DNA of 33,093 nt. It comes from Neisseriaceae bacterium. Its GTDB lineage: Bacteria > Pseudomonadota > Gammaproteobacteria > Burkholderiales > Neisseriaceae. The notes below the pieces were generated by a model. That model saw nothing but the letters and a program-made list of their open reading frames with translations, was not told the DNA's origin and did not search any database. The stretch is taken from contig JAFWRB010000041.1 in assembly GCA_017508845.1 (NCBI GenBank), positions 1-33,093 on the forward strand, written 5' to 3'. Positions 17,426-29,680 of this stretch are shown one piece after another. Each line of letters starts with the position of its first letter. Position 1 is the first letter of the stretch. A program made the translations under genes and the position numbers.

Positions 17426-17474
17426 TCTTTCAGACAGCCTGAAAGCGTGTTTTTATTGATTAAGGATATTTAAT

Positions 17475-17876: not shown

Positions 17877-17894
17877 TTTTAACGGTTGTTCCTA

Positions 17895-19079
17895 ATGAAT
17901 ATGCAAAGAAAACCCATTTTTGCCTTAAAAACTTGTTTGTTGTTGAGTTTGCTTGCCACTGTTACGGCGTGTGGCTGGTTGCCCCATTCAGGCCCTTCCA
18001 CAGGACAAGTTACTTCATTAGGACAAAGCAATAATCAGGCTGTTCCCGATGTCGCTTTGTTGGACATTGAACACAGCCTGATTCAAGATTTATCGCAACG
18101 CCACAAGGCAAACAGTTTTGCCGCATTAGAAAACACCGCACAAAGCCTTGATGTGGTGAGTCGTGGCGATGTATTAGACATTACCATTTGGGAGGCCGCT
18201 CCTGCCATGCTGTTTGGCGGAGCCTTGTCTGATAGTGGAGCAGGCACTGCCCATGTTACCAAATTGCCGCCACAAACCGTGAGTTCTAACGGCACGATTT
18301 CCATTCCTTTTGTCGGCAACCTGAAAGTAGTGGATAAATCGCTTGAAGACATTCAAAATCTCATTCGCAATCAACTTTCTCGTAAAGCCAATCAACCACA
18401 AGTGATTGTGAGTTTAGCTCAAAACAATTCTACTAATGTTTTGGTTGTGCGGGCAGGCAACAGCGTGCGTATGCCTTTGACGCCCGCCCGCGAACGCATT
18501 TTGGACGCATTAGCCGCTGTGGGCGGTTCCACCGCTAATGTGCAGGACACCACCATTCAAATCACACGCAATAAAAAAATCAGCAAAATTGCGTTAGAAG
18601 ATTTGGTTTCTGACCCCGCACAAAACATTTTATTGCATCGTGGCGATGTGGTAACCGTCATCACCAACCCTTACACATTCACTTCTATGGGTGCAGTAGG
18701 TAGAGCCCAAGAAATTGGCTTTTCCGCACGCGGTTTATCATTAGCTGAAGCCGTAGGCAGAATGGGTGGCTTGCAAGACCGCCGTTCAGACGCTCGTGGC
18801 GTATTTGTGTTTCGCTATACGCCTTTGTCCGAATTGCCCACAGCCGAACAACTTAAATGGACACAAAAAGGCTATCAAGGCAATACCGATGTACCTGTTG
18901 TTTATCGTTTAGATTTAACCAATGCCAATTCAATGTTGTGGATGCAAAAATTTCCTATTCACAATAAAGATGTGGTGTATGTTTCCAATGCACCGTTGGC
19001 AGAAGTGCAAAAATTCTTACAATTTGTTTTCTCACCTGTAACTTCTGGATTTAATAGCATTGATAATATTGTGCATTAA
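17895..19079 (+). CDS. ctrA: capsule polysaccharide export outer-membrane lipoprotein (OPX/Wza family, CtrA/KpsD-like)
   Basis: The track ORF starts at TTG 17886; ATG 17895 or 17901 is more likely. Signal peptide plus lipobox LLATVTA|C. CGWLPHSGPSTGQVTSLGQ resembles the CtrA mature N-terminus as I recall it. PES/SLBB-like GDVLDITIWE and GDVVTV blocks. It is followed by ctrBCD. Confidence 0.82.
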   Translation: MNMQRKPIFALKTCLLLSLLATVTACGWLPHSGPSTGQVTSLGQSNNQAVPDVALLDIEHSLIQDLSQRHKANSFAALENTAQSLDVVSRGDVLDITIWEAAPAMLFGGALSDSGAGTAHVTKLPPQTVSSNGTISIPFVGNLKVVDKSLEDIQNLIRNQLSRKANQPQVIVSLAQNNSTNVLVVRAGNSVRMPLTPARERILDALAAVGGSTANVQDTTIQITRNKKISKIALEDLVSDPAQNILLHRGDVVTVITNPYTFTSMGAVGRAQEIGFSARGLSLAEAVGRMGGLQDRRSDARGVFVFRYTPLSELPTAEQLKWTQKGYQGNTDVPVVYRLDLTNANSMLWMQKFPIHNKDVVYVSNAPLAEVQKFLQFVFSPVTSGFNSIDNIVH

Positions 19080-19125
19080 AAGCGTGTCATCGGTGCTATT
19101 TCGTTATATAATGTAGCTTGTTTTT

Positions 19126-19140
19126 TTCAGGCAGCCTGAA
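19126..19140. repeat. DUS, perfect 15-mer TTCAGGCAGCCTGAA
   Basis: Exact match; left arm of the ctrA-distal hairpin. Confidence 0.85.
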
Positions 19141-19148
19141 ACTTAATT

Positions 19149-19163
19149 TTCAGGCTGCCTGAA
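19149..19163. repeat. DUS, perfect 15-mer TTCAGGCTGCCTGAA
   Basis: Exact match; right arm of the hairpin. Confidence 0.85.
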
Positions 19164-19215
19164 AAATAAAAAAACCACTTTTTAGACTGTTTGAAACGAT
19201 TGATAAAAAATACTT

Positions 19216-19230
19216 TTCAGGCTGCCTGAA
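19216..19230. repeat. DUS, perfect 15-mer TTCAGGCTGCCTGAA
   Basis: Exact match, 32 nt upstream of the ctrB ATG. Confidence 0.85.
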
Positions 19231-19261
19231 AAATATATTCGATTGATATGGAACAAGAAGA

Positions 19262-20404
19262 ATGAGTAGATTATCTAAATTAAAGAAAAACCCCAAAGCA
19301 TTTTTTATTGATGCTTTAATCAAAAATTCTTTACGATTTATCACCGTAACATTGCCCGTTATTTTAGCATTATTGTATTTTGGTTTAATTGCCTCCGACC
19401 AATACATTTCCCAATCTTCTTTTGTGATTCGTTCGGCAAGTCAGCAAAATTCCTTAACAGGATTAGGGGCATTTTTACAAAATGTCGGCTTTTCTCGTTC
19501 GCAGGACGATACTTACAGCGTACGAGAATATATGACTTCGCGTGCTGCACTCAATAACTTGGAACAACAAGGCATTGCCGTGCGTTCTTTTTATGAAAAA
19601 AAGGGCGATTTAATTAGCCGTTTTAATACATTTGGTTTTAATGGCGAACAAGAATTGTTTTATCAATATTATAAAAAGAAAGTAACGGTTAATTTCGACC
19701 CTGTGTCGGGTATTTCTACATTAGATGTGGTGTCTTTTGACCCCAAAGATTCCTATGTTGTGAATGAGGCTTTACTCAAACAAGCCGAAGTTTTAATCAA
19801 TCAACTGAATGATAGGGCTTTAAAAGATACGGTCAAATACGCACAAGCACAAGTTGATGTGGCAGAAGAACGAGTGAAAAAAGCGTCCGAAGATTTAATT
19901 GTGTATCGCACCAAAAACGGCGTATTTGACTTAAAAGTGCAAGCCGAAGGCAAAATCGGTTTAATTTCTAAATTGCAAGACGAACTCATTTTACTGCAAA
20001 CGCAATTAGACCAAGTGCGAGCCATTACCCCTGACAATCCACAGATTTCAGGTTTGATGGCACGAGAACGCAGCCTGAAAAAAGAAATCGAAAAACAAAC
20101 CAATGCTATGTTAAGCGATGAAGACGGCTCAATGACCAAACAAGCGGCAGAGTATCAACGGGTTTATTTAGAAAACGAATTAGCTGAAAAACAATTAGCG
20201 GCGGCGATTACTGCATTAGAAAATGCCAAAGCCGATGCCACACGCCAACAACTTTATTTGGAAGTGATTTCAGCCCCCATTGAACCCGACTTTGCACTGT
20301 TGCCACGCCGTTTGTACAACATTATTGCCACCTTGTTTATCGGCTTAATGATTTATGGCGTTGCCGTGTTGTTACTCGCAGGCGTTAGGGAGCATAAAAA
20401 CTGA
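19262..20404 (+). CDS. ctrB: capsule export inner-membrane protein (PCP-3, CtrB/KpsE-like)
   Basis: 380 aa. N-terminal TM (ITVTLPVILALLYFGLIA), a long coiled-coil-like periplasmic region, and a C-terminal TM (IIATLFIGLMIYGVAVLLLAGV). Position between ctrA and the ABC transporter genes. Confidence 0.8.
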   Translation: MSRLSKLKKNPKAFFIDALIKNSLRFITVTLPVILALLYFGLIASDQYISQSSFVIRSASQQNSLTGLGAFLQNVGFSRSQDDTYSVREYMTSRAALNNLEQQGIAVRSFYEKKGDLISRFNTFGFNGEQELFYQYYKKKVTVNFDPVSGISTLDVVSFDPKDSYVVNEALLKQAEVLINQLNDRALKDTVKYAQAQVDVAEERVKKASEDLIVYRTKNGVFDLKVQAEGKIGLISKLQDELILLQTQLDQVRAITPDNPQISGLMARERSLKKEIEKQTNAMLSDEDGSMTKQAAEYQRVYLENELAEKQLAAAITALENAKADATRQQLYLEVISAPIEPDFALLPRRLYNIIATLFIGLMIYGVAVLLLAGVREHKN

Positions 20405-21273
20405 TGAGCGACAATGCCGAATTAACACCGCCGTCTATGCCTGATGATGGTTACCAAAATGCGTCCAAATTAGCGATGACGCAGACGCGGGAAACTACGC
20501 TTAAAGAATCATTCCAAATCCAAAAACGCGTGATAGGAGCGTTGCTGTTGCGAGAAATGATTACCCGTTATGGACGCAATAACTTGGGCTTTCTGTGGCT
20601 ATTTGTGGAACCGTTGTTGATAACGATGGTGATTACACTAGTATGGAAGTTTATTCGCGGTACACATATTACCGATTTAAATATTGTTGCTTTTGCAATT
20701 ACTGGTTATCCATTAGTGATGATGTGGCGTAAGTCTGCTAACAAAGCAATTGGAGCAGTTACTGCTAACAAGGGGTTGTTATATCATCGGAATGTACGCA
20801 TTATAGACTTGTTATTCTCACGAATTATTTTAGAAATTGCCAGTGTTACCGTAGCACAAATTGTTATCCTTATGGTACTTATTTTTATAGGTTGGATACC
20901 GCTACCATCTGATGTATTTTATATGTTGTTGGCTTGGATTCTGATGTCTTTTTTTGCTATAGGATTAGGATTATTGTTATATGCCTTATCAGAAAAATCG
21001 GAAATATTTGGTAGGGTATGGAAAGCGATGGGATTAGCAACTATGCTTGTTTCAGGAGTGTTTTATTTTGTTTCTGCCCTTCCAGTTTATGTGCAAGAAA
21101 TTTTATTATGGTTTCCAATGGTTCATGGGACAGAAATGTTCCGTCATGGTTATTTTGGTGCGACCGTAGTTACTATGGAGAATCCATGGTATTTAATCTT
21201 ATGGGATATTATCTTATTGTTGGTTGGTTTATTAGCAGTCAATGGTGTTATGCGACGAGGGGTATCTAAATAA
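20404..21273 (+). CDS. ctrC: capsule export ABC transporter permease (ABC-2 type, CtrC/KpsM-like)
   Basis: 289 aa, about 6 TM segments. [26 protein letters not shown] is typical of ABC-2 polysaccharide exporters. ATGA-type overlap with the ctrB stop. An internal Met (MTQTRE) is an alternative start. Confidence 0.82.
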
Positions 21274-21917
21274 TGTTGGCATTAGAACATGTTTATAAGT
21301 CCTATCCCACACGCAAGGGCATGCGTACGGTTTTGCACGACATTAACTTTACCCTAAAAAAAGGCGAAAAATTAGGCATTCTCGGACGCAATGGTGCAGG
21401 TAAGTCCACACTTATTCGTTTAATCGGTGGTGTTGAGTCTCCCAATTCTGGTCGCATCATTCGCAATATGAGTGTCTCTTGGCCATTGGCATTTTCAGGG
21501 GCATTTCAAGGCAGTTTGACAGGAATGGACAATTTGCGTTTTATCTGTCGTATTTACAATGCTAATATAGCGAAAGTAAAAAAATTTACCGAAGACTTTG
21601 CTGAATTAGGTTTATATTTAAATGAACCTATCAAAACCTATTCATCAGGTATGAAAGCAAGGCTTGCTTTCGCCCTATCACTTGCGATAGAATTCGACTG
21701 TTACCTTATTGACGAAGTGATTGCGGTGGGTGATGCTCGTTTGAATGCCAAATGTAAATATGAGCTATTTGAAAAGCGTAAGGATCGTTCTTTAATTTTG
21801 GTGTCGCACAATGAGAAAACAATTCAACAGTATTGCGATAAAGGAGCTGTGTTGAAAGATGGTTGCTTGTCTCAATTAGATAGTGTTGAGTGGTCGTTTG
21901 TGGAATATGACAAATAA
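21273..21917 (+). CDS. ctrD: capsule export ABC transporter ATP-binding protein (CtrD/KpsT-like)
   Basis: 214 aa. Walker [11 protein letters not shown], signature [12 protein letters not shown], Walker B CYLIDE, H-loop SHN. TAATG overlap with ctrC. Confidence 0.88.
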
Positions 21918-21935
21918 GTTGTTGAGGAAGTAACC

Positions 21936-23045
21936 ATGTCGAAAATGTCTAAACTTTTTGTTAATCCAATTCAATTTTGGAGAGATTTTTTTGGGAAAAA
22001 AGTTATTGGGTACTATGGAAAAACGATTTTTGCTTTTCATATCAATGACTGGAAAAGAAAGTTTGTGGAATCTATTTTCCCTGAATATGATTTTGTTTAT
22101 ATCCCATTTAAGGCAACTGATAAATGGTTGCATGATAATTGCATTGCTAAAATCGTTGATAATGTTGCACAGTCTAGAATTTTAGTTTGGGGTATGTGGT
22201 TGCCTAAAATTATTCAACAAAATGATTTTATTATGAGTAATATTCCCATTACCTGGGTTGAAGATGGTTTTATTCGCTCCATTGGATTGGGTTCAGGACA
22301 TGTGTTGCCTGCAAGTTTAAATTTTGATTCAAGAACTTGTTATTTTGATGCGAGAAAAGAGTCGGATTTGGAGCATATTCTCAATACTTATGATTTTGAT
22401 GCAGATGTTGCATTGATGCAAAGAGCGGTATCATTAAAACAAAGATTATTATCTACAGGTATCAGTAAGTATAACCATTCTAAAAAGGTAGATATTGCGA
22501 ATGTTTATGGACCGAAACGGCAAACGAGAATATTGGTTGTGGGTCAAGTTGAAGATGACGCGTCTATTGCTTATGGTTGTTTGAGTGCCTATAACAATAA
22601 TGATATTGTTCGTATTGCTGCTTATGAAAATCCAGATGCACAAATTATTTACAAACCGCATCCAGATGTTTTACACCAGAAACGAGAAAAATTATCAGAT
22701 CCGCGTGACGTTGCAGATATATGTCAAGTGTTAAACATTGATATTCCGTTATCTCAATCTTTTGAAACTATCGATCATGTTTATACTATTTCATCTCAAG
22801 CAGGATTTGAAGCCTTGTTAAGAGGGATATCTGTAACGACATTGGGATGTCCATTTTATTCTGGTTGGGGTTGTACGGATGATAGACAAAAAAATGATAG
22901 AAGAATCAGAAAGCTGACTGTTGAACAAATCTTGGCAGCGGCATACATTTTGTACCCTAAATACTATCATCCGTTGTATAAAAATGAAACGGATGTTGAG
23001 AGTGTTTTGCAATATTTTGAAACTGTTTTAAATGGAGATAAGTGA
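21936..23045 (+). CDS. single-module KpsC/KpsS-family (Capsule_synth) protein, putative beta-Kdo glycosyltransferase
   Basis: 369 aa; GAGGAAG RBS. Blocks WVEDGFIRSIGLG, ISKYN, ILVVGQVEDDASI, IIYKPHPDV, VYTISSQAGFEALLRG and GCPFYSGWGCTDDR match my recollection of conserved KpsC/LipA module motifs (EDGFLRS, KxHPDV, PFYAGWGLT). The size corresponds to one module, not the two-module KpsC. Confidence 0.6.
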   Translation: MSKMSKLFVNPIQFWRDFFGKKVIGYYGKTIFAFHINDWKRKFVESIFPEYDFVYIPFKATDKWLHDNCIAKIVDNVAQSRILVWGMWLPKIIQQNDFIMSNIPITWVEDGFIRSIGLGSGHVLPASLNFDSRTCYFDARKESDLEHILNTYDFDADVALMQRAVSLKQRLLSTGISKYNHSKKVDIANVYGPKRQTRILVVGQVEDDASIAYGCLSAYNNNDIVRIAAYENPDAQIIYKPHPDVLHQKREKLSDPRDVADICQVLNIDIPLSQSFETIDHVYTISSQAGFEALLRGISVTTLGCPFYSGWGCTDDRQKNDRRIRKLTVEQILAAAYILYPKYYHPLYKNETDVESVLQYFETVLNGDK

Positions 23046-24949
23046 GCATGAGCAGTATGTTTGAGTCTTATGTCAGAGAAAGAATTAGTCAATTTTTATC
23101 TAATTTTGATGCTAAAACATCATACGATGATGTCCGTAAATTGGGAGATCAGTATCAAAAAAGTGGTAACGCTTTTGACCTGTTGTCTATCGGCAGTTTT
23201 ATTAAACAAAAATATTCGAATAGAGAAATTGGTTATCGGTTTATTTGGCTTGGGTATCGCAAATTTCATATGAGAAATCAGATGGAAAGTGTTGAACAAG
23301 AATTTATGGATAAAGTTTTCCCAAGATATTGTGAGAAACAGATATTTCCGATTTTTTTTCGAGAGATTTTCGTGGAAGCGTTTTTAACGGGAAGATTCAC
23401 CAAGTGCTCTCGTCTGCTTGGTTTGTGTGATGAACAACTTTTGGACAAGTTTATGGCAGATAATAAGATGTTTTGTCATCGAGTGCAACAGTTTCGAGAG
23501 ATTTTTGGAGAGTATACAGCACATTCCGAAGGTGAAGCAAATGATGATATAAGTGAATTTATTAAACAGTACAACTTAGGGGAACGAAGATTAGAGTTTT
23601 TTGAACGCATAAGAAATTCAGATGTGATTGTTTCCCCATATACTAATAGGAAATTATTTTTAATTATGGAAATGTTAAAACATTGTCCTGAATTTACAAC
23701 AACAAAGTTATTGATTACTGTTTATAGGAGAAATTGCCGTCTAGCTTATAATTTATTGGATTATTTAATAACACATAACAAGGTGGAATACAATCTCATT
23801 TATTTTTTATTAAAGTTTTCCACGCTTGATTCTAACTTATTATCATATTTTGATAAAGTATCGAGTTCATTGGGTTTAGATCGTGATTGTAAAATTGCCA
23901 TTGGTGCTTTGGAAATGAGAAAAAAAGCCATAGTACTGAATCAAGATTGGTTACATTTTGATGAGAATAGAACTTTCTTCTTTAAAAAGACGAATGAACA
24001 GCCAATACATGTGGCAATTGAGGTTTCGGGACAAATTCGAGGTTCTATAGAAGACAATATTTCTAATATCCTTAATATTAGGGATAATATTACTGTTGGA
24101 GAAGTAGATGTTTTCCTAGATTCTTGGAGTATTGGCAACTTTTTCCCATTCAAACTTTCGGATTATAGAATTTGGGGTAAGGAGTTAGGTGCAATATACA
24201 AAGATGTATGTAAATTATCAGCAGAACAGTTTGTGTCTTTGTTTCCCGCAACTACTCAATTTCTTGAGAAATTAAATAAAGAGAAAAGTTTTGCCTTATC
24301 AGCAACTAATGAAATTTTCAAGGATTTTACTGATGTGAGATTTGAGAAAGAGGAGGACATATCTTTTCCAACAGTGTTGTCACATAAAAATAGTTTTAAT
24401 CAAGCAAAGATGTGGTATAAGATATTCCAGGCTCACCGATTAGCAACTGCTCATGGTTATAGGCATGGTTTTGAGTATGATGTTTCGATTAGAATCAGAC
24501 CAGACTTGAATATTTCTTCTCGAGATGTTTCTGAAATGGTATCTGTGGTGAGTAAATATAAAAATATTGTATTCACTCATTACAACAATAATGATGGTTT
24601 TGGCGATCAATTTTTGATTTGTTCCAAAATGGCAATGGATAGAATTGCCTCGTTATGGTGTCAATTAACTCGTAAGCGTTCTTTTCGACATATTCCAGAA
24701 CTGCATAGGACATATCAAGCTGAAAGTTTTATTACTCAAAATTGTGCCTTATTGGGATTGGAAGTGGTTGTATTTAGAGCGGATTCATATCAGTTAGGTA
24801 GTTCTCAATCGGAATTGTTGGTGAATACGATTACTGATGATATTACGCCGTTTCTTCAGTTAGATCTTGCCAATCAACCTAATCAGGAAGGCAGGTTGTT
24901 TGTTGAAAAATATATAGAAAACAAGAAAAACGGTATTATTTTTAAGTGA
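23042..24949 (+). CDS. hypothetical protein, candidate capsule polymerase or transferase (no assignable motif)
   Basis: 635 aa. GTG 23042 (GTGA overlap with the upstream stop) or ATG 23048 (GGAGA about 9 nt upstream). Very A+T-rich, co-oriented and tightly packed within the capsule cassette. The N-terminal ~300 aa look helical. The C-terminal ~300 aa have alternating beta/alpha-like blocks (VAIEVSGQIRG, DVFLDSW, YDVSIRIRPDL, GFGDQFLICS). Confidence 0.5.
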   Translation: MSMSSMFESYVRERISQFLSNFDAKTSYDDVRKLGDQYQKSGNAFDLLSIGSFIKQKYSNREIGYRFIWLGYRKFHMRNQMESVEQEFMDKVFPRYCEKQIFPIFFREIFVEAFLTGRFTKCSRLLGLCDEQLLDKFMADNKMFCHRVQQFREIFGEYTAHSEGEANDDISEFIKQYNLGERRLEFFERIRNSDVIVSPYTNRKLFLIMEMLKHCPEFTTTKLLITVYRRNCRLAYNLLDYLITHNKVEYNLIYFLLKFSTLDSNLLSYFDKVSSSLGLDRDCKIAIGALEMRKKAIVLNQDWLHFDENRTFFFKKTNEQPIHVAIEVSGQIRGSIEDNISNILNIRDNITVGEVDVFLDSWSIGNFFPFKLSDYRIWGKELGAIYKDVCKLSAEQFVSLFPATTQFLEKLNKEKSFALSATNEIFKDFTDVRFEKEEDISFPTVLSHKNSFNQAKMWYKIFQAHRLATAHGYRHGFEYDVSIRIRPDLNISSRDVSEMVSVVSKYKNIVFTHYNNNDGFGDQFLICSKMAMDRIASLWCQLTRKRSFRHIPELHRTYQAESFITQNCALLGLEVVVFRADSYQLGSSQSELLVNTITDDITPFLQLDLANQPNQEGRLFVEKYIENKKNGIIFK

Positions 24950-24956
24950 GGTTTCT

Positions 24957-26099
24957 ATGTTCCTAATCCCCATGTGTGGCTTATCTTCCCGTTTTTTTAA
25001 GGCGGGTTATGATAAACCGAAATATATGTTAGACCTTAACGGAGAAACAGTTTTTTCTTGGTCGGTGAAATCTTTTGAGCGTTATTTTTTAACGGATAAG
25101 TTTGTTTTTATTTACCGTGATATTTATGGCACGAAATCGTTTTTAGAGCAAGAGATTAAAAAACTTGGTATAAGAGATTTTGCTTTCATTTGTTTAGACC
25201 ATGAAACCGAGGGGCAGGCTGAAACGGTTTATTTGGGTTTAGAGCAAATTGTAGAAGATGATGCGTTATATATTTTTAATATCGACTCCAAAATTGTGGA
25301 TTTCAGACAGCCTGAATGGGTGAAAGATTGTGATGCTTATTTGGAGGTTTTTCAAGGAGAAGGTGACCACTGGTCTTTCGCTTTGCCTGATACAGACGGT
25401 AGAACCGTATTAAAAACCACCGAAAAAGAACGCATTTCTGATTTATGTTCGGACGGTTTATATTACTTCAAAAGTAAATCTTTGTTTATAGATTTATTTC
25501 AAGAAGTTAAAGAAAAAGGCGAGAAAACTAAATCGGAATATTATATTGCACCTTTGTATAATTATTTAATTCAACAAGGCAAAAAAGTTTATTATGATTT
25601 AATTGATAAGAATAACATTCTTTTTTGTGGTACGCCTGATGAATATTTAGCATTGTTGTCTTTCAAGCAGCCTGAAAAAGTTAATCATGGTTCAAGTACC
25701 ACTCAAAAGGTGCGAGTGAAGAAAATTGTGATTGATTTAGACAATACCATTTCAATGACTAAAAATCGAGATTATGCAAATGCCGAGCCGATTATGGAAG
25801 TGGTCGAAAAAATCCGTGAATACAAACAAATGGGTTTTGATATTGTGATTTATTCTTCTCGCAATATGAAAACTTATCAAGGCAATATCGGTAAAATTAC
25901 GGCGAATACGCTGCCGATTATTATTGACTGGCTAAAGCGGCACAATATTCCTTTTGACGAAATTTATATCGGCAAGCCTTGGTGCGGAGAAGATGGTTTT
26001 TATGTTGATGACCGTGCCATTCGTCCAAGTGAATTTACACAACTGTCGTATGAAGAAATACAAAAAATCACCAGTGAAGGGCAGGGGGAAACACAATGA
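24957..26099 (+). CDS. bifunctional sugar-phosphate nucleotidyltransferase-like / HAD-superfamily phosphatase (capsule biosynthesis phosphatase type)
   Basis: 380 aa. The N-terminus LIPMCGLSSRFFKAGYDKPKYML...TEGQAETV...EKERISDLCSDGLYYF...YYIAPLYNYLI...GTPDEY has the NTP-transferase (GT-A-like) pattern. The C-terminus carries HAD motifs: I VIDLDNT, II YSSRN, IV YVDDRA. Confidence 0.65.
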   Translation: MFLIPMCGLSSRFFKAGYDKPKYMLDLNGETVFSWSVKSFERYFLTDKFVFIYRDIYGTKSFLEQEIKKLGIRDFAFICLDHETEGQAETVYLGLEQIVEDDALYIFNIDSKIVDFRQPEWVKDCDAYLEVFQGEGDHWSFALPDTDGRTVLKTTEKERISDLCSDGLYYFKSKSLFIDLFQEVKEKGEKTKSEYYIAPLYNYLIQQGKKVYYDLIDKNNILFCGTPDEYLALLSFKQPEKVNHGSSTTQKVRVKKIVIDLDNTISMTKNRDYANAEPIMEVVEKIREYKQMGFDIVIYSSRNMKTYQGNIGKITANTLPIIIDWLKRHNIPFDEIYIGKPWCGEDGFYVDDRAIRPSEFTQLSYEEIQKITSEGQGETQ

Positions 26100-27643
26100 T
26101 TCTCATCAATTCCGCGGCTTTCGGTTCTTCTTCTTTACGCAATGAATTAGGCAATGTGCCGCCTGTGTTTTTGCCTTTGGGCAATAAAAAATTGCTGGTT
26201 TATCAGGTTGAATATTTGCGCCGTTTTTTTGATGAGCAGATTGTGGTTTCTTTGCCACAATCTTATCAACTCTCCATAATGGAGAAAAAACTGTTGGATA
26301 GATTGCAAGTATCCATTTGTCCCGTGCCTGATGGTTTAAAGTTAGGTGCGGCTATTTTGTATGTTTTGAATACAATAGAAGAGTTTTCTGTTTCAGAGCC
26401 TCTGCGAATGTTGCACGGTGATACTTTACTGACAACTTATCAGCCCAATCCAAATGCTTTGGGTTTGGGTAAGACAGTTTATGATTATCACTGGGAAAAT
26501 GAAGCCAATACACAAGGTAAAGTCTGGTGTGGTTATTTTTCTTTTGAAATGCCGCGTTTATTGATTGCAAATTTAGCACGCACACAAGGCGATTTTGTGC
26601 AAAGCGTTCGGCAATATCATCAAAAAAATCCTTTGGACTTAATTGATTGTGAAGACTGGTTTGACTTTGGTCATATCAATACCTATTTTCGTTCGCGGGC
26701 TATGGTGACCACGCAACGTTCTTTTAATGAATTGAACATTGCCGATGGTGTGGTAGAAAAGCAATCTGTGCAAAACCGCAAAATCGAAGCTGAAGGAAAC
26801 TGGTTTTTCAAGCTGCCTGAACATTTAAAAATTTACATTCCGCAGTTAATCAGTTGGGAGCATACGCCAGAAAAAAGCTGTTATTGTTTAGAATACTTAA
26901 ATTGTATGCCCGTAAACGAGCTCTTTGTGCATGGACGTAAAATTAAATCGTTTTGGTTGCATTTGTGTACTTTGTTGGCAGATTTTATGGGCAAAACAAG
27001 GCAAGTGGTATTAAGTGATGACGAAAACAAGTGCATTGTTGCGGACGCACAAAAACTTTATCACGATAAAACCATTAGTCGTTTAACACAGTATGCCGAA
27101 ACAACAGGGCTATTGTTAGATGCACCTGTCAAATATGCAGGCAAAGATTTAGGTTCGATTATGCATATTGCTCATGATTGTATCCAACGCACACAACAGT
27201 TACCCATTATTTCTTGCTATTTGCACGGTGATTTGTGTTTTTCGAATATTTTGTATGATTCGCGTAGCGACAATATTAAAGTAATTGACCCACGCGGCAT
27301 TAATGCTGATAATGAATTAACCTTATTAGGTGACCAAAAGTATGATTTGGCCAAATTGTGTCATTCTATGGTTGGTTTATACGATTTTATTATTGCCGAC
27401 AATTTTGAATTGCTTGAAGATGACGAAGTAGGTGTAGTGTTAAGTTTTGATTGTGATGATTCGGTTTTGGCATTAGCAGATATTTTTTGGCAAACACCAT
27501 TTATTCCCAAACTAAGCAATCGTGCTATTTTGCCACTTACCATTTTGTTGTTTTTATCCATGTTGCCATTGCACAGCGATAAACCTTTACGACAAAAAGC
27601 AATGCTCGCCAATGCATTAAGGCTTTATGCGATGATGAAATAA
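26096..27643 (+). CDS. nucleotidyltransferase-like N-domain fused to APH/choline-kinase-family phosphotransferase domain
   Basis: 515 aa; ATGA overlap with the upstream gene. The N-terminus (VPPVFLPLGNKKLLVYQVEYL...MLHGDTLL) looks like a degenerate NTP-transferase fold. The C-terminus has the catalytic loop LHGDLCFSNILYD followed by IKVIDPRG (Brenner-type HxDxxxxN ... D). Confidence 0.6.
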   Translation: MILINSAAFGSSSLRNELGNVPPVFLPLGNKKLLVYQVEYLRRFFDEQIVVSLPQSYQLSIMEKKLLDRLQVSICPVPDGLKLGAAILYVLNTIEEFSVSEPLRMLHGDTLLTTYQPNPNALGLGKTVYDYHWENEANTQGKVWCGYFSFEMPRLLIANLARTQGDFVQSVRQYHQKNPLDLIDCEDWFDFGHINTYFRSRAMVTTQRSFNELNIADGVVEKQSVQNRKIEAEGNWFFKLPEHLKIYIPQLISWEHTPEKSCYCLEYLNCMPVNELFVHGRKIKSFWLHLCTLLADFMGKTRQVVLSDDENKCIVADAQKLYHDKTISRLTQYAETTGLLLDAPVKYAGKDLGSIMHIAHDCIQRTQQLPIISCYLHGDLCFSNILYDSRSDNIKVIDPRGINADNELTLLGDQKYDLAKLCHSMVGLYDFIIADNFELLEDDEVGVVLSFDCDDSVLALADIFWQTPFIPKLSNRAILPLTILLFLSMLPLHSDKPLRQKAMLANALRLYAMMK

Positions 27644-27660
27644 TGGCTTTGTCTTGAGTA

Positions 27661-27680
27661 CAGCCAAAATGTTTTGGCTG
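27661..27680 (+). terminator. hairpin CAGCCAAAA-TG-TTTTGGCTG downstream of the 515-aa gene
   Basis: Perfect 9-bp inverted repeat 18 nt after the stop. The T-run (27690-27694) is displaced by 9 nt, so this is a weak terminator candidate. Confidence 0.3.
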
Positions 27681-27813
27681 TCTGAAGGATTTTTGTAAGT
27701 TAAGAAAGGTATTGCAATGAGTTTGATTTGTGAAATAAGGTCTGATATTGTCGGGGGGAGGGATTACTTCTTCTCATCTAAACAAAGCAAGTTCTGTTGT
27801 GCGTACAACATTA

Positions 27814-27837
27814 TTTTGCTCTAATAAAGGAGCAAAA
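27814..27837 (+). promoter_or_regulatory. 8-bp stem hairpin occluding the acetyltransferase Shine-Dalgarno
   Basis: TTTTGCTC (27814-27821), TAATAAAG, GAGCAAAA (27830-27837). The SD AAGGAG (27827-27832) is partly in the 3' arm. ATG at 27840. Confidence 0.3.
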
Positions 27838-27839
27838 TA

Positions 27840-28607
27840 ATGGCGAAATATAAATTTGTGATGACAGAGGAAATTTGTCTTTTATTACAACAGGAAGGAT
27901 TGTTGTTTTGTCGAGGATTGGAACAGGATTCTGGTAAAACCCACTTAATGGGTAAGGATGTACTCTTTTCTGAGCTTTCATCTTTTTATAACACTGCCTA
28001 CAGAAAAGGAAATGTTGTATATCCTATGGGAGCATACTCTTATTCTTCTGTGCAATTTCCTTTGGATATTAGAGTAGGCAATTATTGTTCTATTGCAGGA
28101 AATATTCATTTTCGTGGCTGGGAACATCCGATTACTGCTTTTACTACTAACCATATTGCTTATGATGCGATAACACTCAATCTAATGCACACTCAATTAG
28201 TTAAGAATTCGACTAATTTGAAACCTAAAAGAGCCAAATTTCATATGGGTGATGATGTGTGGATTGCAAATGATGTTTTACTACCTCGGCATATTACAAT
28301 CGGAACAGGAGCGATTATTGCTGCTCGTGCGAATGTAACCAAAGATGTTCCGCCGTATGCCATTGTTGGCGGTAATCCTGCAAAAATTATCAAATATCGT
28401 TTTGAAGAAAAAATTATTGAAAAACTATTAGCAACAGGTTGGACGGAATACGATATTGCCCCAATGGAAATTCGTGGTGATATTCCTGTGGAGAACTTTA
28501 TTGAAGAGTTTTATAACTACCGTGATAAGGGATTGATTAAACCGATTGTGTTGAAAAACTTAAAAGAAGTTTTGGATAAACACGGTATTGTTTATGAGCG
28601 GGTATAG
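27840..28607 (+). CDS. hexapeptide-repeat acyltransferase, XAT (CatB/Vat-like) class; possible capsule O-acetyltransferase
   Basis: 255 aa; AAGGAG RBS. IRVGNYCSIAGNIHF...EHPITAFTTNHIAY, then GDDVWIANDVLLPRHITIGTGAIIAARANVTKDVPPYAIVGGNPAKIIKYRF, typical of left-handed beta-helix xenobiotic-type acetyltransferases. Confidence 0.7.
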   Translation: MAKYKFVMTEEICLLLQQEGLLFCRGLEQDSGKTHLMGKDVLFSELSSFYNTAYRKGNVVYPMGAYSYSSVQFPLDIRVGNYCSIAGNIHFRGWEHPITAFTTNHIAYDAITLNLMHTQLVKNSTNLKPKRAKFHMGDDVWIANDVLLPRHITIGTGAIIAARANVTKDVPPYAIVGGNPAKIIKYRFEEKIIEKLLATGWTEYDIAPMEIRGDIPVENFIEEFYNYRDKGLIKPIVLKNLKEVLDKHGIVYERV

Positions 28608-28774
28608 AATGCAAAAAGGGTTTCAGGTTGCCTGAATATGCACATAACTTTGTTAAAATTCCTTGTAATAAATTGTTTTATAAAGATTTTGATATGCTAA
28701 AAACTTTTCTTTGATTTTGTCAAGGTTTTATTCCATTGAGTGCATTTTTTCAAAGGAAAATTTAAGTAGCATAG

Positions 28775-29662
<888 letters not shown>

Positions 29663-29665
29663 GTT

Positions 29666-29680
29666 TTCAGGCAGCCTGAA
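29666..29680. repeat. DUS, perfect 15-mer TTCAGGCAGCCTGAA
   Basis: Exact match, 4 nt after the kdsA stop. Confidence 0.85.

Follow-up and report, generated by a model that had tools for sequence, protein, structure and literature searches.

Fructofuranose occurs on several capsules and O antigens without a biochemical explanation, among them those of Escherichia coli K4, K11 and K52, Pasteurella multocida types B and E, Haemophilus influenzae type e and Campylobacter jejuni HS:1. The capsule of P. multocida type B is built of N-acetylglucosamine (GlcNAc) and N-acetylmannosaminuronic acid (ManNAcA), with side chains of fructose and glycine; the fructose side chain is lost in bcbE and bcbG mutants, and bcbF is a predicted participant (PMC13552107). 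In E. coli K4, the chondroitin is left unfructosylated when kfoE is deleted (PMC7925653). In the literature that we searched, we found no account of the fructose donor or its enzymology, and the genes are described only as “involved in” or “required for activation and transfer”. Here, we analyze a five-gene capsule cassette in a 33,093-nucleotide stretch of a Neisseriaceae bacterium (contig JAFWRB010000041.1, assembly GCA_017508845.1, positions 1 to 33,093; this whole stretch is called the window below), and compare it with these systems.

[quoted passage not shown] The features of the cassette are as follows.

21936..23045, + strand: gene 1, 369 aa, predicted single-module KpsC-like (GT107-type) retaining beta-Kdo transferase (PF05159 Capsule_synth, E 7e-31)
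23042..23974, + strand: gene 2, N-terminal half (aa 1-311), TPR-like domain of helical repeats, all-alpha (AlphaFold2 model)
23975..24949, + strand: gene 2, C-terminal half (aa 312-635), GT-A-like but divergent, of the BcbD/KfoD (DUF7796-related) family; candidate fructofuranosyltransferase (hidden Markov model (HMM) searches, Foldseek)
24957..25682, + strand: gene 3, N-terminal domain (aa 1-242), BcbE-type sugar-phosphate nucleotidyltransferase (PDB 4EVW, E 7e-69; TIGR01208 rmlA_long, E 5e-7)
25716..26072, + strand: gene 3, C-terminal domain (aa 254-372), BcbF/EcbF-type HAD “capsule biosynthesis phosphatase” (TIGR01689, 208.5 bits, cutoff 162)
26096..27643, + strand: gene 4, 515 aa, BcbG/KfoE-type, with a degenerate NTP-transferase-like N-terminus (about aa 1-200) and an APH-like sugar-phosphate kinase (about aa 203-515)
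27840..28607, + strand: gene 5, 255 aa, hexapeptide-repeat (XAT-like) O-acetyltransferase (PF00132)

The preliminary description of this DNA had placed five co-directional genes here, between ctrABCD and kdsA, with the first four tightly packed or overlapping. This was borne out: the five open reading frames (ORFs) are intact, all lie on the + strand between ctrABCD-type export genes upstream and kdsA downstream (flanks identified by Pfam and NCBIfam), genes 1 and 2 overlap by 4 nt, as do genes 3 and 4, and genes 2 and 3 are 7 nt apart. Gene 5 follows gene 4 after 196 nt. The domain calls also held in profile searches (PF05159 in gene 1, TIGR01689 and an NTP-transferase-like domain in gene 3, a kinase-like domain in gene 4 and a Hexapep/XAT-like domain in gene 5), and the usual building blocks were missing as described, with no GT4, TagF-like, Stealth or sialic-acid family found in the cassette by domain search. 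The same description could not map the cassette to any known capsule locus, and this point has to be withdrawn. Genes 3 and 4 are orthologues of P. multocida BcbE plus BcbF and of BcbG, respectively, and gene 2 belongs to the BcbD/KfoD family.

The nearest described systems are thus the region 2 loci of P. multocida types B and E (bcbD-bcbE-bcbF-bcbG), grouped with those of H. influenzae type e and Neisseria sp. S1. P. multocida has counterparts of four of the five window genes, and the order D-like, E, F, G is kept in ABC-transporter capsule loci on both sides. Compared with the P. multocida type B-like locus L031, the window proteins are 63% (E), 66% (F) and 48.5% (G) identical, while the D-like domain is recognized at the HMM level. 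Three differences stand out. The P. multocida backbone of GlcNAc and ManNAcA is made by BcbABC, whereas the window has no such genes and instead carries one KpsC-like Kdo transferase; the window has E and F as a fusion, unlike P. multocida; and the D-like protein of the window has a TPR-like N-terminal domain of about 310 aa that is absent from the shorter proteins of KfoD/BcbD type (these have 477 aa in K4 and in Neisseria sp. S1, and the P. multocida record shows the protein as split).

A similar set is found in E. coli. The K4 locus, which specifies a chondroitin backbone with a fructose branch, encodes KfoD and KfoE together with a HAD protein and a BcbE-like protein, although identities to the window are lower (31-55%). 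The K11 polysaccharide contains fructose, and the part of the K11 locus available to us encodes a TIGR01689 phosphatase and a 536-aa kinase-like protein; K4 and, as far as this partial record goes, K11 have the D/E/F/G set in common with the window, and the K112 locus also carries TIGR01689. Our comparison returned no characterized capsule locus with equal overall gene content.

Gene 3 (24957-26099, + strand, 380 aa) is the most informative of the five. Its BcbE domain is 63% identical to P. multocida BcbE and 70% identical to Bibersteinia trehalosi BcbE, and its match in PDB, 4EVW, is a Vibrio cholerae protein entered as an “NDP-sugar pyrophosphorylase”. The nucleotidyltransferase signature PMCGLSSRF...KPKY (general form PM(A/C)GLSSRF...KPK) is kept in all BcbE homologues examined, gene 3 included. 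The HAD domain matches PDB 1XPJ (E 8.5e-48), is 66% identical to P. multocida BcbF and carries the motif DLDNT (DxDxT); 319 phage records contain homologues, and the arabinosylation cluster of Serratia phage 4S is one such case. In databases, most homologues of the N-terminal domain stand alone, are about 236-240 aa long and carry the name BcbE or “GT family 2”; they come from Pasteurellaceae and other bacteria, and BcbE-BcbF fusions of the gene 3 type are rare among them. Such a fusion fits two consecutive steps of one pathway.

Domain searches with gene 4 returned a weak NTP-transferase N-terminus and a kinase-like C-terminus. Over its full length the protein is 48.5% identical to P. multocida BcbG and 52% identical to B. 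trehalosi BcbG, and it matches both halves of K4 KfoE, which is split by an insertion sequence. The APH-type kinase motifs HGDLCFSN and IDPRG are invariant in this family, whose members have about 520 aa. In contrast, the N-terminus of gene 4 lacks GxGxR...PK, and the BcbG/KfoE proteins read INSAA...R..G.(I/V)PP.FLP instead. Phages also encode homologues of gene 4: ORF236 of Ralstonia phage RSL1 (E 2e-38), and the “GlmU” of Serratia phage 4S, which lies beside an arabinose-5-phosphate isomerase and a dCMP-modifying enzyme. This phage AfhE-type enzyme keeps the signature (VGAGLATRL...IPK in the 4S “GlmU”) and has no BcbE partner. Together, the motifs suggest that the work has been split, with BcbE as the nucleotidyltransferase and the N-terminus of BcbG/KfoE having lost its signature. 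The earlier proposal that a second sugar is activated within the locus by a kinase, a nucleotidyltransferase and a phosphatase is supported by the domains predicted in genes 3 and 4.

The phage enzymes provide biochemistry for comparison. AfhE, a nucleotidyltransferase-kinase fusion, and AfhF, a 1XPJ-like HAD, make UDP-D-arabinofuranose, converting arabinose-5-phosphate to the 1,5-bisphosphate and then to the 1-phosphate (PMC13326640). These proteins (DLP3 gp81-83, RB69 gp51-55) have the nucleotidyltransferase-like/APH-like kinase fusion and the 1XPJ-like HAD in common with the window, and homology is detectable. However, they are only 24-29% identical to the window proteins, their nucleotidyltransferase keeps the catalytic signature and the phages lack BcbE. 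Gene 4, lacking GxGxR...PK, would not be a competent nucleotidyltransferase fused to a kinase in the manner of AfhE. The phage clusters also contain an arabinose-5-phosphate isomerase and GT-B transferases that act on DNA, and their sugar is arabinose; no gene for arabinose-5-phosphate isomerase was found in the cassette or the window, and a chromosomal KdsD would be expected elsewhere. Fructose-6-phosphate is the 2-hexulose analogue of arabinose-5-phosphate, with the arabino configuration.

Gene 2 (23042-24949, + strand, 635 aa) had been described as a protein with no assignable motif. At the level of sequence this stands, with zero matches in Pfam, NCBIfam and PDB; its fold, however, can be assigned as TPR-like plus GT-A-like by AlphaFold2 and Foldseek. 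The AlphaFold2 model (predicted local distance difference test score (pLDDT) 85, predicted template modelling score (pTM) 0.87) consists of helices only up to residue 301, followed by an alpha/beta C-terminal domain. In Foldseek searches against PDB, the C-terminal domain matched the GT-A enzymes COLGALT1, BoGT6a and GnT-I (E about 1e-2, probability about 1). Matches to uncharacterized viral proteins, among them DUF7796 proteins and three proteins of cyanophage S-SKS1, were stronger (E 1e-7 to 1e-5), with template modelling scores (TM-scores, normalized to target length) of up to 0.71.

A word-index search of 5.8 billion proteins returned only the near-identical orthologue of gene 2 from a metagenome-assembled genome (MAG), and an exact-sequence lookup of the GTG-start version gave no match. 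An exhaustive HMMER search, on the other hand, found 139 representative proteins containing the region of residues ~312-635; most have 600-700 aa, and their N-termini vary. PF25072 (DUF7796) is matched by 15 of 42 family members, several of which also have N-terminal TPR matches in Pfam, and the family profile matches only TPR/PPR chains in PDB, from the N-terminal half. The motifs A.C.SGQ.RG, D.F..TW, NQ.KMFYK, R.RPD and G.GDQF are conserved in the domain family. With the domain HMM we detected E. coli K4 KfoD (7e-21), a B. trehalosi ORF directly upstream of bcbE (7e-56) and an acetyltransferase fusion of 829 aa that lies upstream of a BcbE homologue in a further E. coli capsule locus (1e-56); P. 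multocida BcbD and a Neisseria sp. S1 protein were also detected. We do not claim a relationship to WavE: aligned by hhalign, the gene 2 domain and a WavE-family protein of E. coli gave a probability of ~1%, as did comparisons with a 456-aa ORF of the E. coli locus L028 and with KfoB, and the motif overlaps were no more than suggestive.

The GT-A-like domain sits in KfoD and in BcbD (K4 locus L029, 9427-14348; P. multocida locus L031, 9669-13771), and KfoE of the same K4 region, called “fructosyltransferase” in the literature, reads as a kinase whose nucleotidyltransferase-like domain is degenerate. Judging from these sequences, the roles assigned to KfoE and BcbD in publications may need revision. 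A separate observation concerns the C-terminal tail of gene 2, DLANQPNQEGRLFVEKYIENKKNGIIFK (24857-24946, the last ~30 aa), which is about 85-90% identical in proteins P0122 and P0123, although these are just 35-37% identical to gene 2 overall and P0123 comes from a different cassette. The tail may be a docking motif.

The D-E-F-G set co-occurs in more than 15 loci, including those of E. coli K4 and P. multocida B. Among species-representative genomes, homologues of BcbE, BcbF and BcbG adjoin a gene 2-like protein in 11 of 17 loci: Aeromonas sobria, an Achromobacter MAG (where the contig ends early and a BcbG fragment alone is visible), an Enterobacterales MAG, Pseudomonas putida, six Variovorax genomes and Methylovulum. 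Further D-like genes with E/F/G neighbours were found in B. trehalosi, P. multocida, Neisseria sp. S1, several E. coli loci and cyanophage S-SKS1. Across loci, E, F and G are 35-70% identical to the window proteins, the D-like domain is 23-30% identical and the N-terminal domains differ. This pattern of conserved E/F/G and variable D-like proteins fits shared synthesis of a donor combined with an acceptor-specific transferase, for which the variable GT-A-like D-type protein is the natural candidate.

In E. coli, BcbE/F/G homologues are present in 131 of 5426 complete genomes and in several contexts. One is an ABC-type O-antigen locus (L026/L030) that also has a WavE-family gene. Two are of group 2: a TagF-like capsule locus (L027) with an acetyltransferase-D-like fusion, and a KrkA-like locus (L028) whose 456-aa neighbour is not detectably D-like. 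In cyanophage S-SKS1 (L037, 6762-12802), a HAD gene, a kinase gene, a BcbE-like gene and three D-like paralogues are contiguous, with a transaldolase gene adjoining. Ralstonia phage RSL1 (L034, 3492-5650) carries BcbG-like and BcbE-like genes near genes for an APS kinase and a sulfotransferase-like protein. Thus, phages may make related activated furanoses.

The remaining two genes complete the cassette. Gene 1 matches KpsC modules in PDB (6MGD, E 3e-43; also 6MGB, 6MGC and 8FUW) and is 37-41% identical to the C-terminal and 29-35% identical to the N-terminal modules of two-module KpsC proteins from other loci. It has the Capsule_synth fold and motifs in common with KpsC modules, and shows the motifs VEDGFIRSIGLG and KPHPD; besides KpsC, the systems compared with it are the Kdo-containing capsule polymerases (E. 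coli K13 KrkA, Kingella kingae Csa-type). KpsC, however, consists of two tandem modules and ~680 aa, whereas gene 1 has one module and 369 aa. As it has only one Capsule_synth module, gene 1 is best described from its sequence as a KpsC-like (GT107-type) beta-Kdo transferase and not as KpsC proper. Nor does it belong to GT140, as KrkA does, and it has no fused second glycosyltransferase. Given this one KpsC-like module in the cassette, Kdo is probably a constituent of the polymer, in agreement with the Kdo-containing polymer predicted before. In loci related to the window, the D/E/F/G module has as its partner either a KrkA/Bcs3-like Kdo/ribose polymerase or a GT1+Capsule_synth enzyme.

Gene 5 scored below the cutoffs of the NCBIfam Vat, CatB and phn_thr models (best 93 bits, cutoff 300). 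Its profile matches place it in the same superfamily as Vat and CatB only, and it would not be an equivalog of the xenobiotic acetyltransferases. It is 40% identical to an acetyltransferase that lies between bcbE and bcbF in the B. trehalosi module.

Taking these homologies, domain architectures and gene linkages together with the published loss of fructose in bcbE, bcbG and kfoE mutants, we infer a substrate, an order of steps, a transferase and a polymer, the order being drawn by analogy with the UDP-arabinofuranose route of phage AfhE and AfhF. In this model, the APH-like kinase of gene 4 would phosphorylate the anomeric hydroxyl of a phosphorylated furanose sugar, most likely converting fructose-6-phosphate to fructofuranose-2,6-bisphosphate. 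The HAD domain of gene 3 would then strip the distal 6-phosphate to leave fructofuranose-2-phosphate, and the BcbE domain of the same protein would use a nucleoside triphosphate (NTP) to form a nucleoside diphosphate (NDP)-fructofuranose, while the signature-less N-terminal domain of gene 4 may be a non-catalytic partner. The GT-A-like domain of gene 2 would place fructofuranose on the nascent polymer, with the TPR-like domain coupling it to the assembly machinery, and gene 1 would add beta-Kdo from CMP-Kdo. Finally, gene 5 would O-acetylate the polymer, and CtrABCD would export it. As the cassette offers no more than a Kdo transferase, an acetyltransferase and the fructose module, an O-acetylated Kdo/fructofuranose polymer is the simplest product. 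Fructose could alternate with Kdo in the backbone or branch from a poly-Kdo chain.

Several points weigh against this model. The Foldseek matches of gene 2 to GT-A enzymes in PDB are weak (E about 1e-2). Six of the 17 loci with gene 2-like proteins have no E/F/G genes nearby, so the family is not restricted to that donor, and conversely the E. coli locus L028 has E/F/G but no detectable D-like gene. BcbE is annotated as GT2 (CDD GT2_BcE_like) and could itself be the transferase, and gene 1 could lengthen the linker instead of making polymer. We know of no biochemical assay of any BcbD/E/F/G-type protein, the link to fructose being made by mutant phenotypes in other species; to our knowledge, fructose is a side branch in every known structure, and a role within the chain would have no precedent. 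The P. multocida authors regard BcbD as a linker/transition transferase and not as a fructosyltransferase (PMC13552107). The organism itself is known from metagenomes only, and production of a capsule is a prediction.

A stronger form of the model goes further, and we regard it as doubtful. It would see in the cassette a complete route, new to biochemistry, to NDP-fructofuranose as an activated ketofuranose (anomeric kinase, 6-phosphatase and BcbE pyrophosphorylase) together with a new BcbD/KfoD/DUF7796-related family of glycosyltransferases, represented here by a member with a TPR domain; fructose would alternate with Kdo in the main chain, giving an all-ketose capsule, and KfoE would have been misassigned, with KfoD/BcbD as the true transferase.

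The roles of BcbE and the D-like protein could also be exchanged. The BcbE domain of gene 3 would then be the fructosyltransferase (GT2/GT-A), gene 4 would act as both kinase and pyrophosphorylase, like AfhE, and gene 2 would be a glycosyltransferase or polymerase for a third, housekeeping-derived sugar, or a non-catalytic scaffold. NCBI and CDD do label BcbE proteins as GT family 2, AfhE demonstrates that both steps are possible in one nucleotidyltransferase-kinase fusion, and the loss of fructose in bcbE mutants suits either role. We nevertheless consider this arrangement unlikely: BcbE has the canonical sugar-1-phosphate nucleotidyltransferase signature (AGxSSRF...PK) and matches rmlA_long and 4EVW, whereas it is the N-terminal domain of gene 4/BcbG that has lost the signature. 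Moreover, BcbE is highly conserved across acceptor polymers while the D-like protein is variable, and the close linkage of the D-like gene to E/F/G extends even to a cyanophage.

The logic of the fructose pathway would also serve another sugar, such as NDP-D-arabinofuranose made from arabinose-5-phosphate or a different furanose, leading to a capsule of Kdo/arabinofuranose type. Arabinose-5-phosphate is already on hand as the precursor of Kdo, it is the substrate of the sole biochemically characterized relatives (PMC13326640), and gene 4 and the HAD of gene 3 match the phage arabinosylation cluster. Diversity of sugars in this family is also shown by L035, a sister lineage in which the corresponding slot holds a differently built activation set. 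We judge arabinose or another furanose to be improbable all the same, given that the identity of gene 4 to BcbG proteins is 48-52%, against only 24-28% to the phage enzymes, that gene 3 scores above the curated EcbF-BcbF subfamily cutoff (TIGR01689), and that the cassette, unlike the phage clusters, has no arabinose-5-phosphate isomerase gene. In addition, the solved polysaccharides with E/F/G loci (P. multocida B and E, K4 and, from the partial record, K11) all contain fructose.

Very unlikely, in our view, is an acetylated fructofuranose homopolymer on a poly-Kdo anchor, with gene 1 as an extra linker/transition Kdo transferase and the TPR-bearing gene 2 as sole polymerase: gene 1 is indeed nearest the C-terminal modules of KpsC (37-41%), modules that use Kdo acceptors, no further glycosyltransferase is found in the cassette, and TPR domains mark capsule polymerases, where they are required for elongation from the linker (PMC11666461), but the loci with gene 2-like TPR architecture (L007-L010, L035) all encode a dedicated enzyme for a Kdo-containing polymer (KrkA/Bcs3-like, ~1150 aa, or GT1+Capsule_synth in L035), which suggests that the polymer contains Kdo and that proteins of the gene 2 family work next to that enzyme. 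Capsules of this export pathway are typically anionic, and a neutral fructan would be unusual.

The capsule HAD of gene 3 had first raised the suspicion of a phosphoribosyl pyrophosphate (PRPP)-dependent ribofuranosyltransferase (Bcs3/KrkA-type, CriT/gPRT plus PRP), which was rejected: gene 3 matches neither Bcs3 nor 7SHG, its N-terminus is RmlA/4EVW-like and its HAD is TIGR01689. A 7SHG/Bcs3-type match is present in an L010 protein, such enzymes occurring in the neighbouring loci L007-L010.

All components of the cassette belong to recognizable families, and with four of five genes being counterparts of bcbD-G/kfoD-E it is not categorically new. What is new is the combination, in which a lone KpsC-like module replaces the hexosamine backbone machinery, along with the E-F fusion and the TPR-bearing D-like protein. 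The window offers an informative BcbE-BcbF fusion and a minimal setting with one Kdo transferase and no other backbone genes, and the comparison yields a testable four-enzyme model with the BcbD/KfoD family as transferase, which the window illustrates and does not uniquely reveal. If the model is true, it would define the fructose donor and give KfoE and BcbD new roles, and useful enzymes would become available for K4 chondroitin engineering and glycoconjugate synthesis. We found no Kdo/fructose capsule in the literature searched; such a polymer would, if true, represent new capsule chemistry, in an uncultured commensal without known medical importance.

The genes flanking the cassette define its setting.

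17886..21917, + strand: export region with ctrA/B/C/D-type genes (Pfam and NCBIfam matches)
17886-19079, + strand: ctrA-like outer-membrane export protein (Poly_export and SLBB_2)
19262-20404, + strand: ctrB/KpsE-like (TIGR01010 BexC/CtrB/KpsE, 459 bits, cutoff 437.5)
20404-21273, + strand: ctrC/KpsM-like permease (ABC2_membrane)
21273-21917, + strand: ctrD/KpsT-like ATPase (ABC_tran)
28823..29662, + strand: kdsA, Kdo-8-phosphate synthase, at the right edge of the cassette (NF009109, 524 bits)

With ctrA-D homologues directly upstream, the cassette forms region 2, the type-specific part, of a capsule locus that depends on an ABC transporter (group 2-like). As noted before, the lipid-linker genes are not here: a domain survey of the ORFs found no kpsC/kpsS (lipA/lipB) in the 33-kb window. 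Other large ORFs of the window encode an aconitase, FolP, a RecD-like helicase, a DEAD helicase, an EamA transporter and a ribosomal-protein/rpoA cluster. The window contains no tRNA genes, and a promoter scan was uninformative. At its left end (1-1100), GC content is very low (28-33%), with two small minus-strand ORFs (339-587 and 619-1014), both without a Pfam match.

The GC content of the cassette is 35.1%, against 43.6-44.3% in the flanks, and returns to ~44% at kdsA. The 12-mer AGGCAGCCTGAA, which resembles a DNA uptake sequence (DUS) and which we take to be similar to the Kingella/Simonsiella-type dialect, has 13 exact sites and 38 matches when one mismatch is allowed, for 0.07 expected (window 2338-32116). 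Its copies often form palindromic, terminator-like intergenic hairpins, for example at 17427-17445, 19125-19236 and 28622-28636. In contrast, there are zero exact copies of AGGCAGCCTGAA in 19231-29668, which spans ctrB-D, the cassette and kdsA. The low GC content and the lack of exact DUS-like 12-mers in the cassette fit horizontal acquisition, and the cassette was probably acquired by horizontal transfer.

An identical arrangement is present in the MAG “Neisseriaceae bacterium RGIG3783” from roe-deer abomasum (L006) and in several metagenome contigs; from this shared arrangement, the host is therefore an uncultured Neisseriaceae bacterium of the ruminant gut. Over 17886-29662, identity to RGIG3783 is mosaic, with 99.2% for gene 2, 91% for gene 3, 89.7% for ctrC, 86.5% for gene 5 and 81.4% for gene 4. 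This uneven divergence suggests recombination within the locus. A close relative, L035 (metagenome contig SRR14209398_33786), is 86% identical in ctrD and 94% identical in kdsA, and has another cassette in the ctrD-kdsA slot. This cassette looks like an alternative capsule type and codes for an epimerase and a GT1+Capsule_synth enzyme, a gene 2-like protein with 33% identity, an APH kinase on its own, another kind of HAD and a protein distantly like BcbE.

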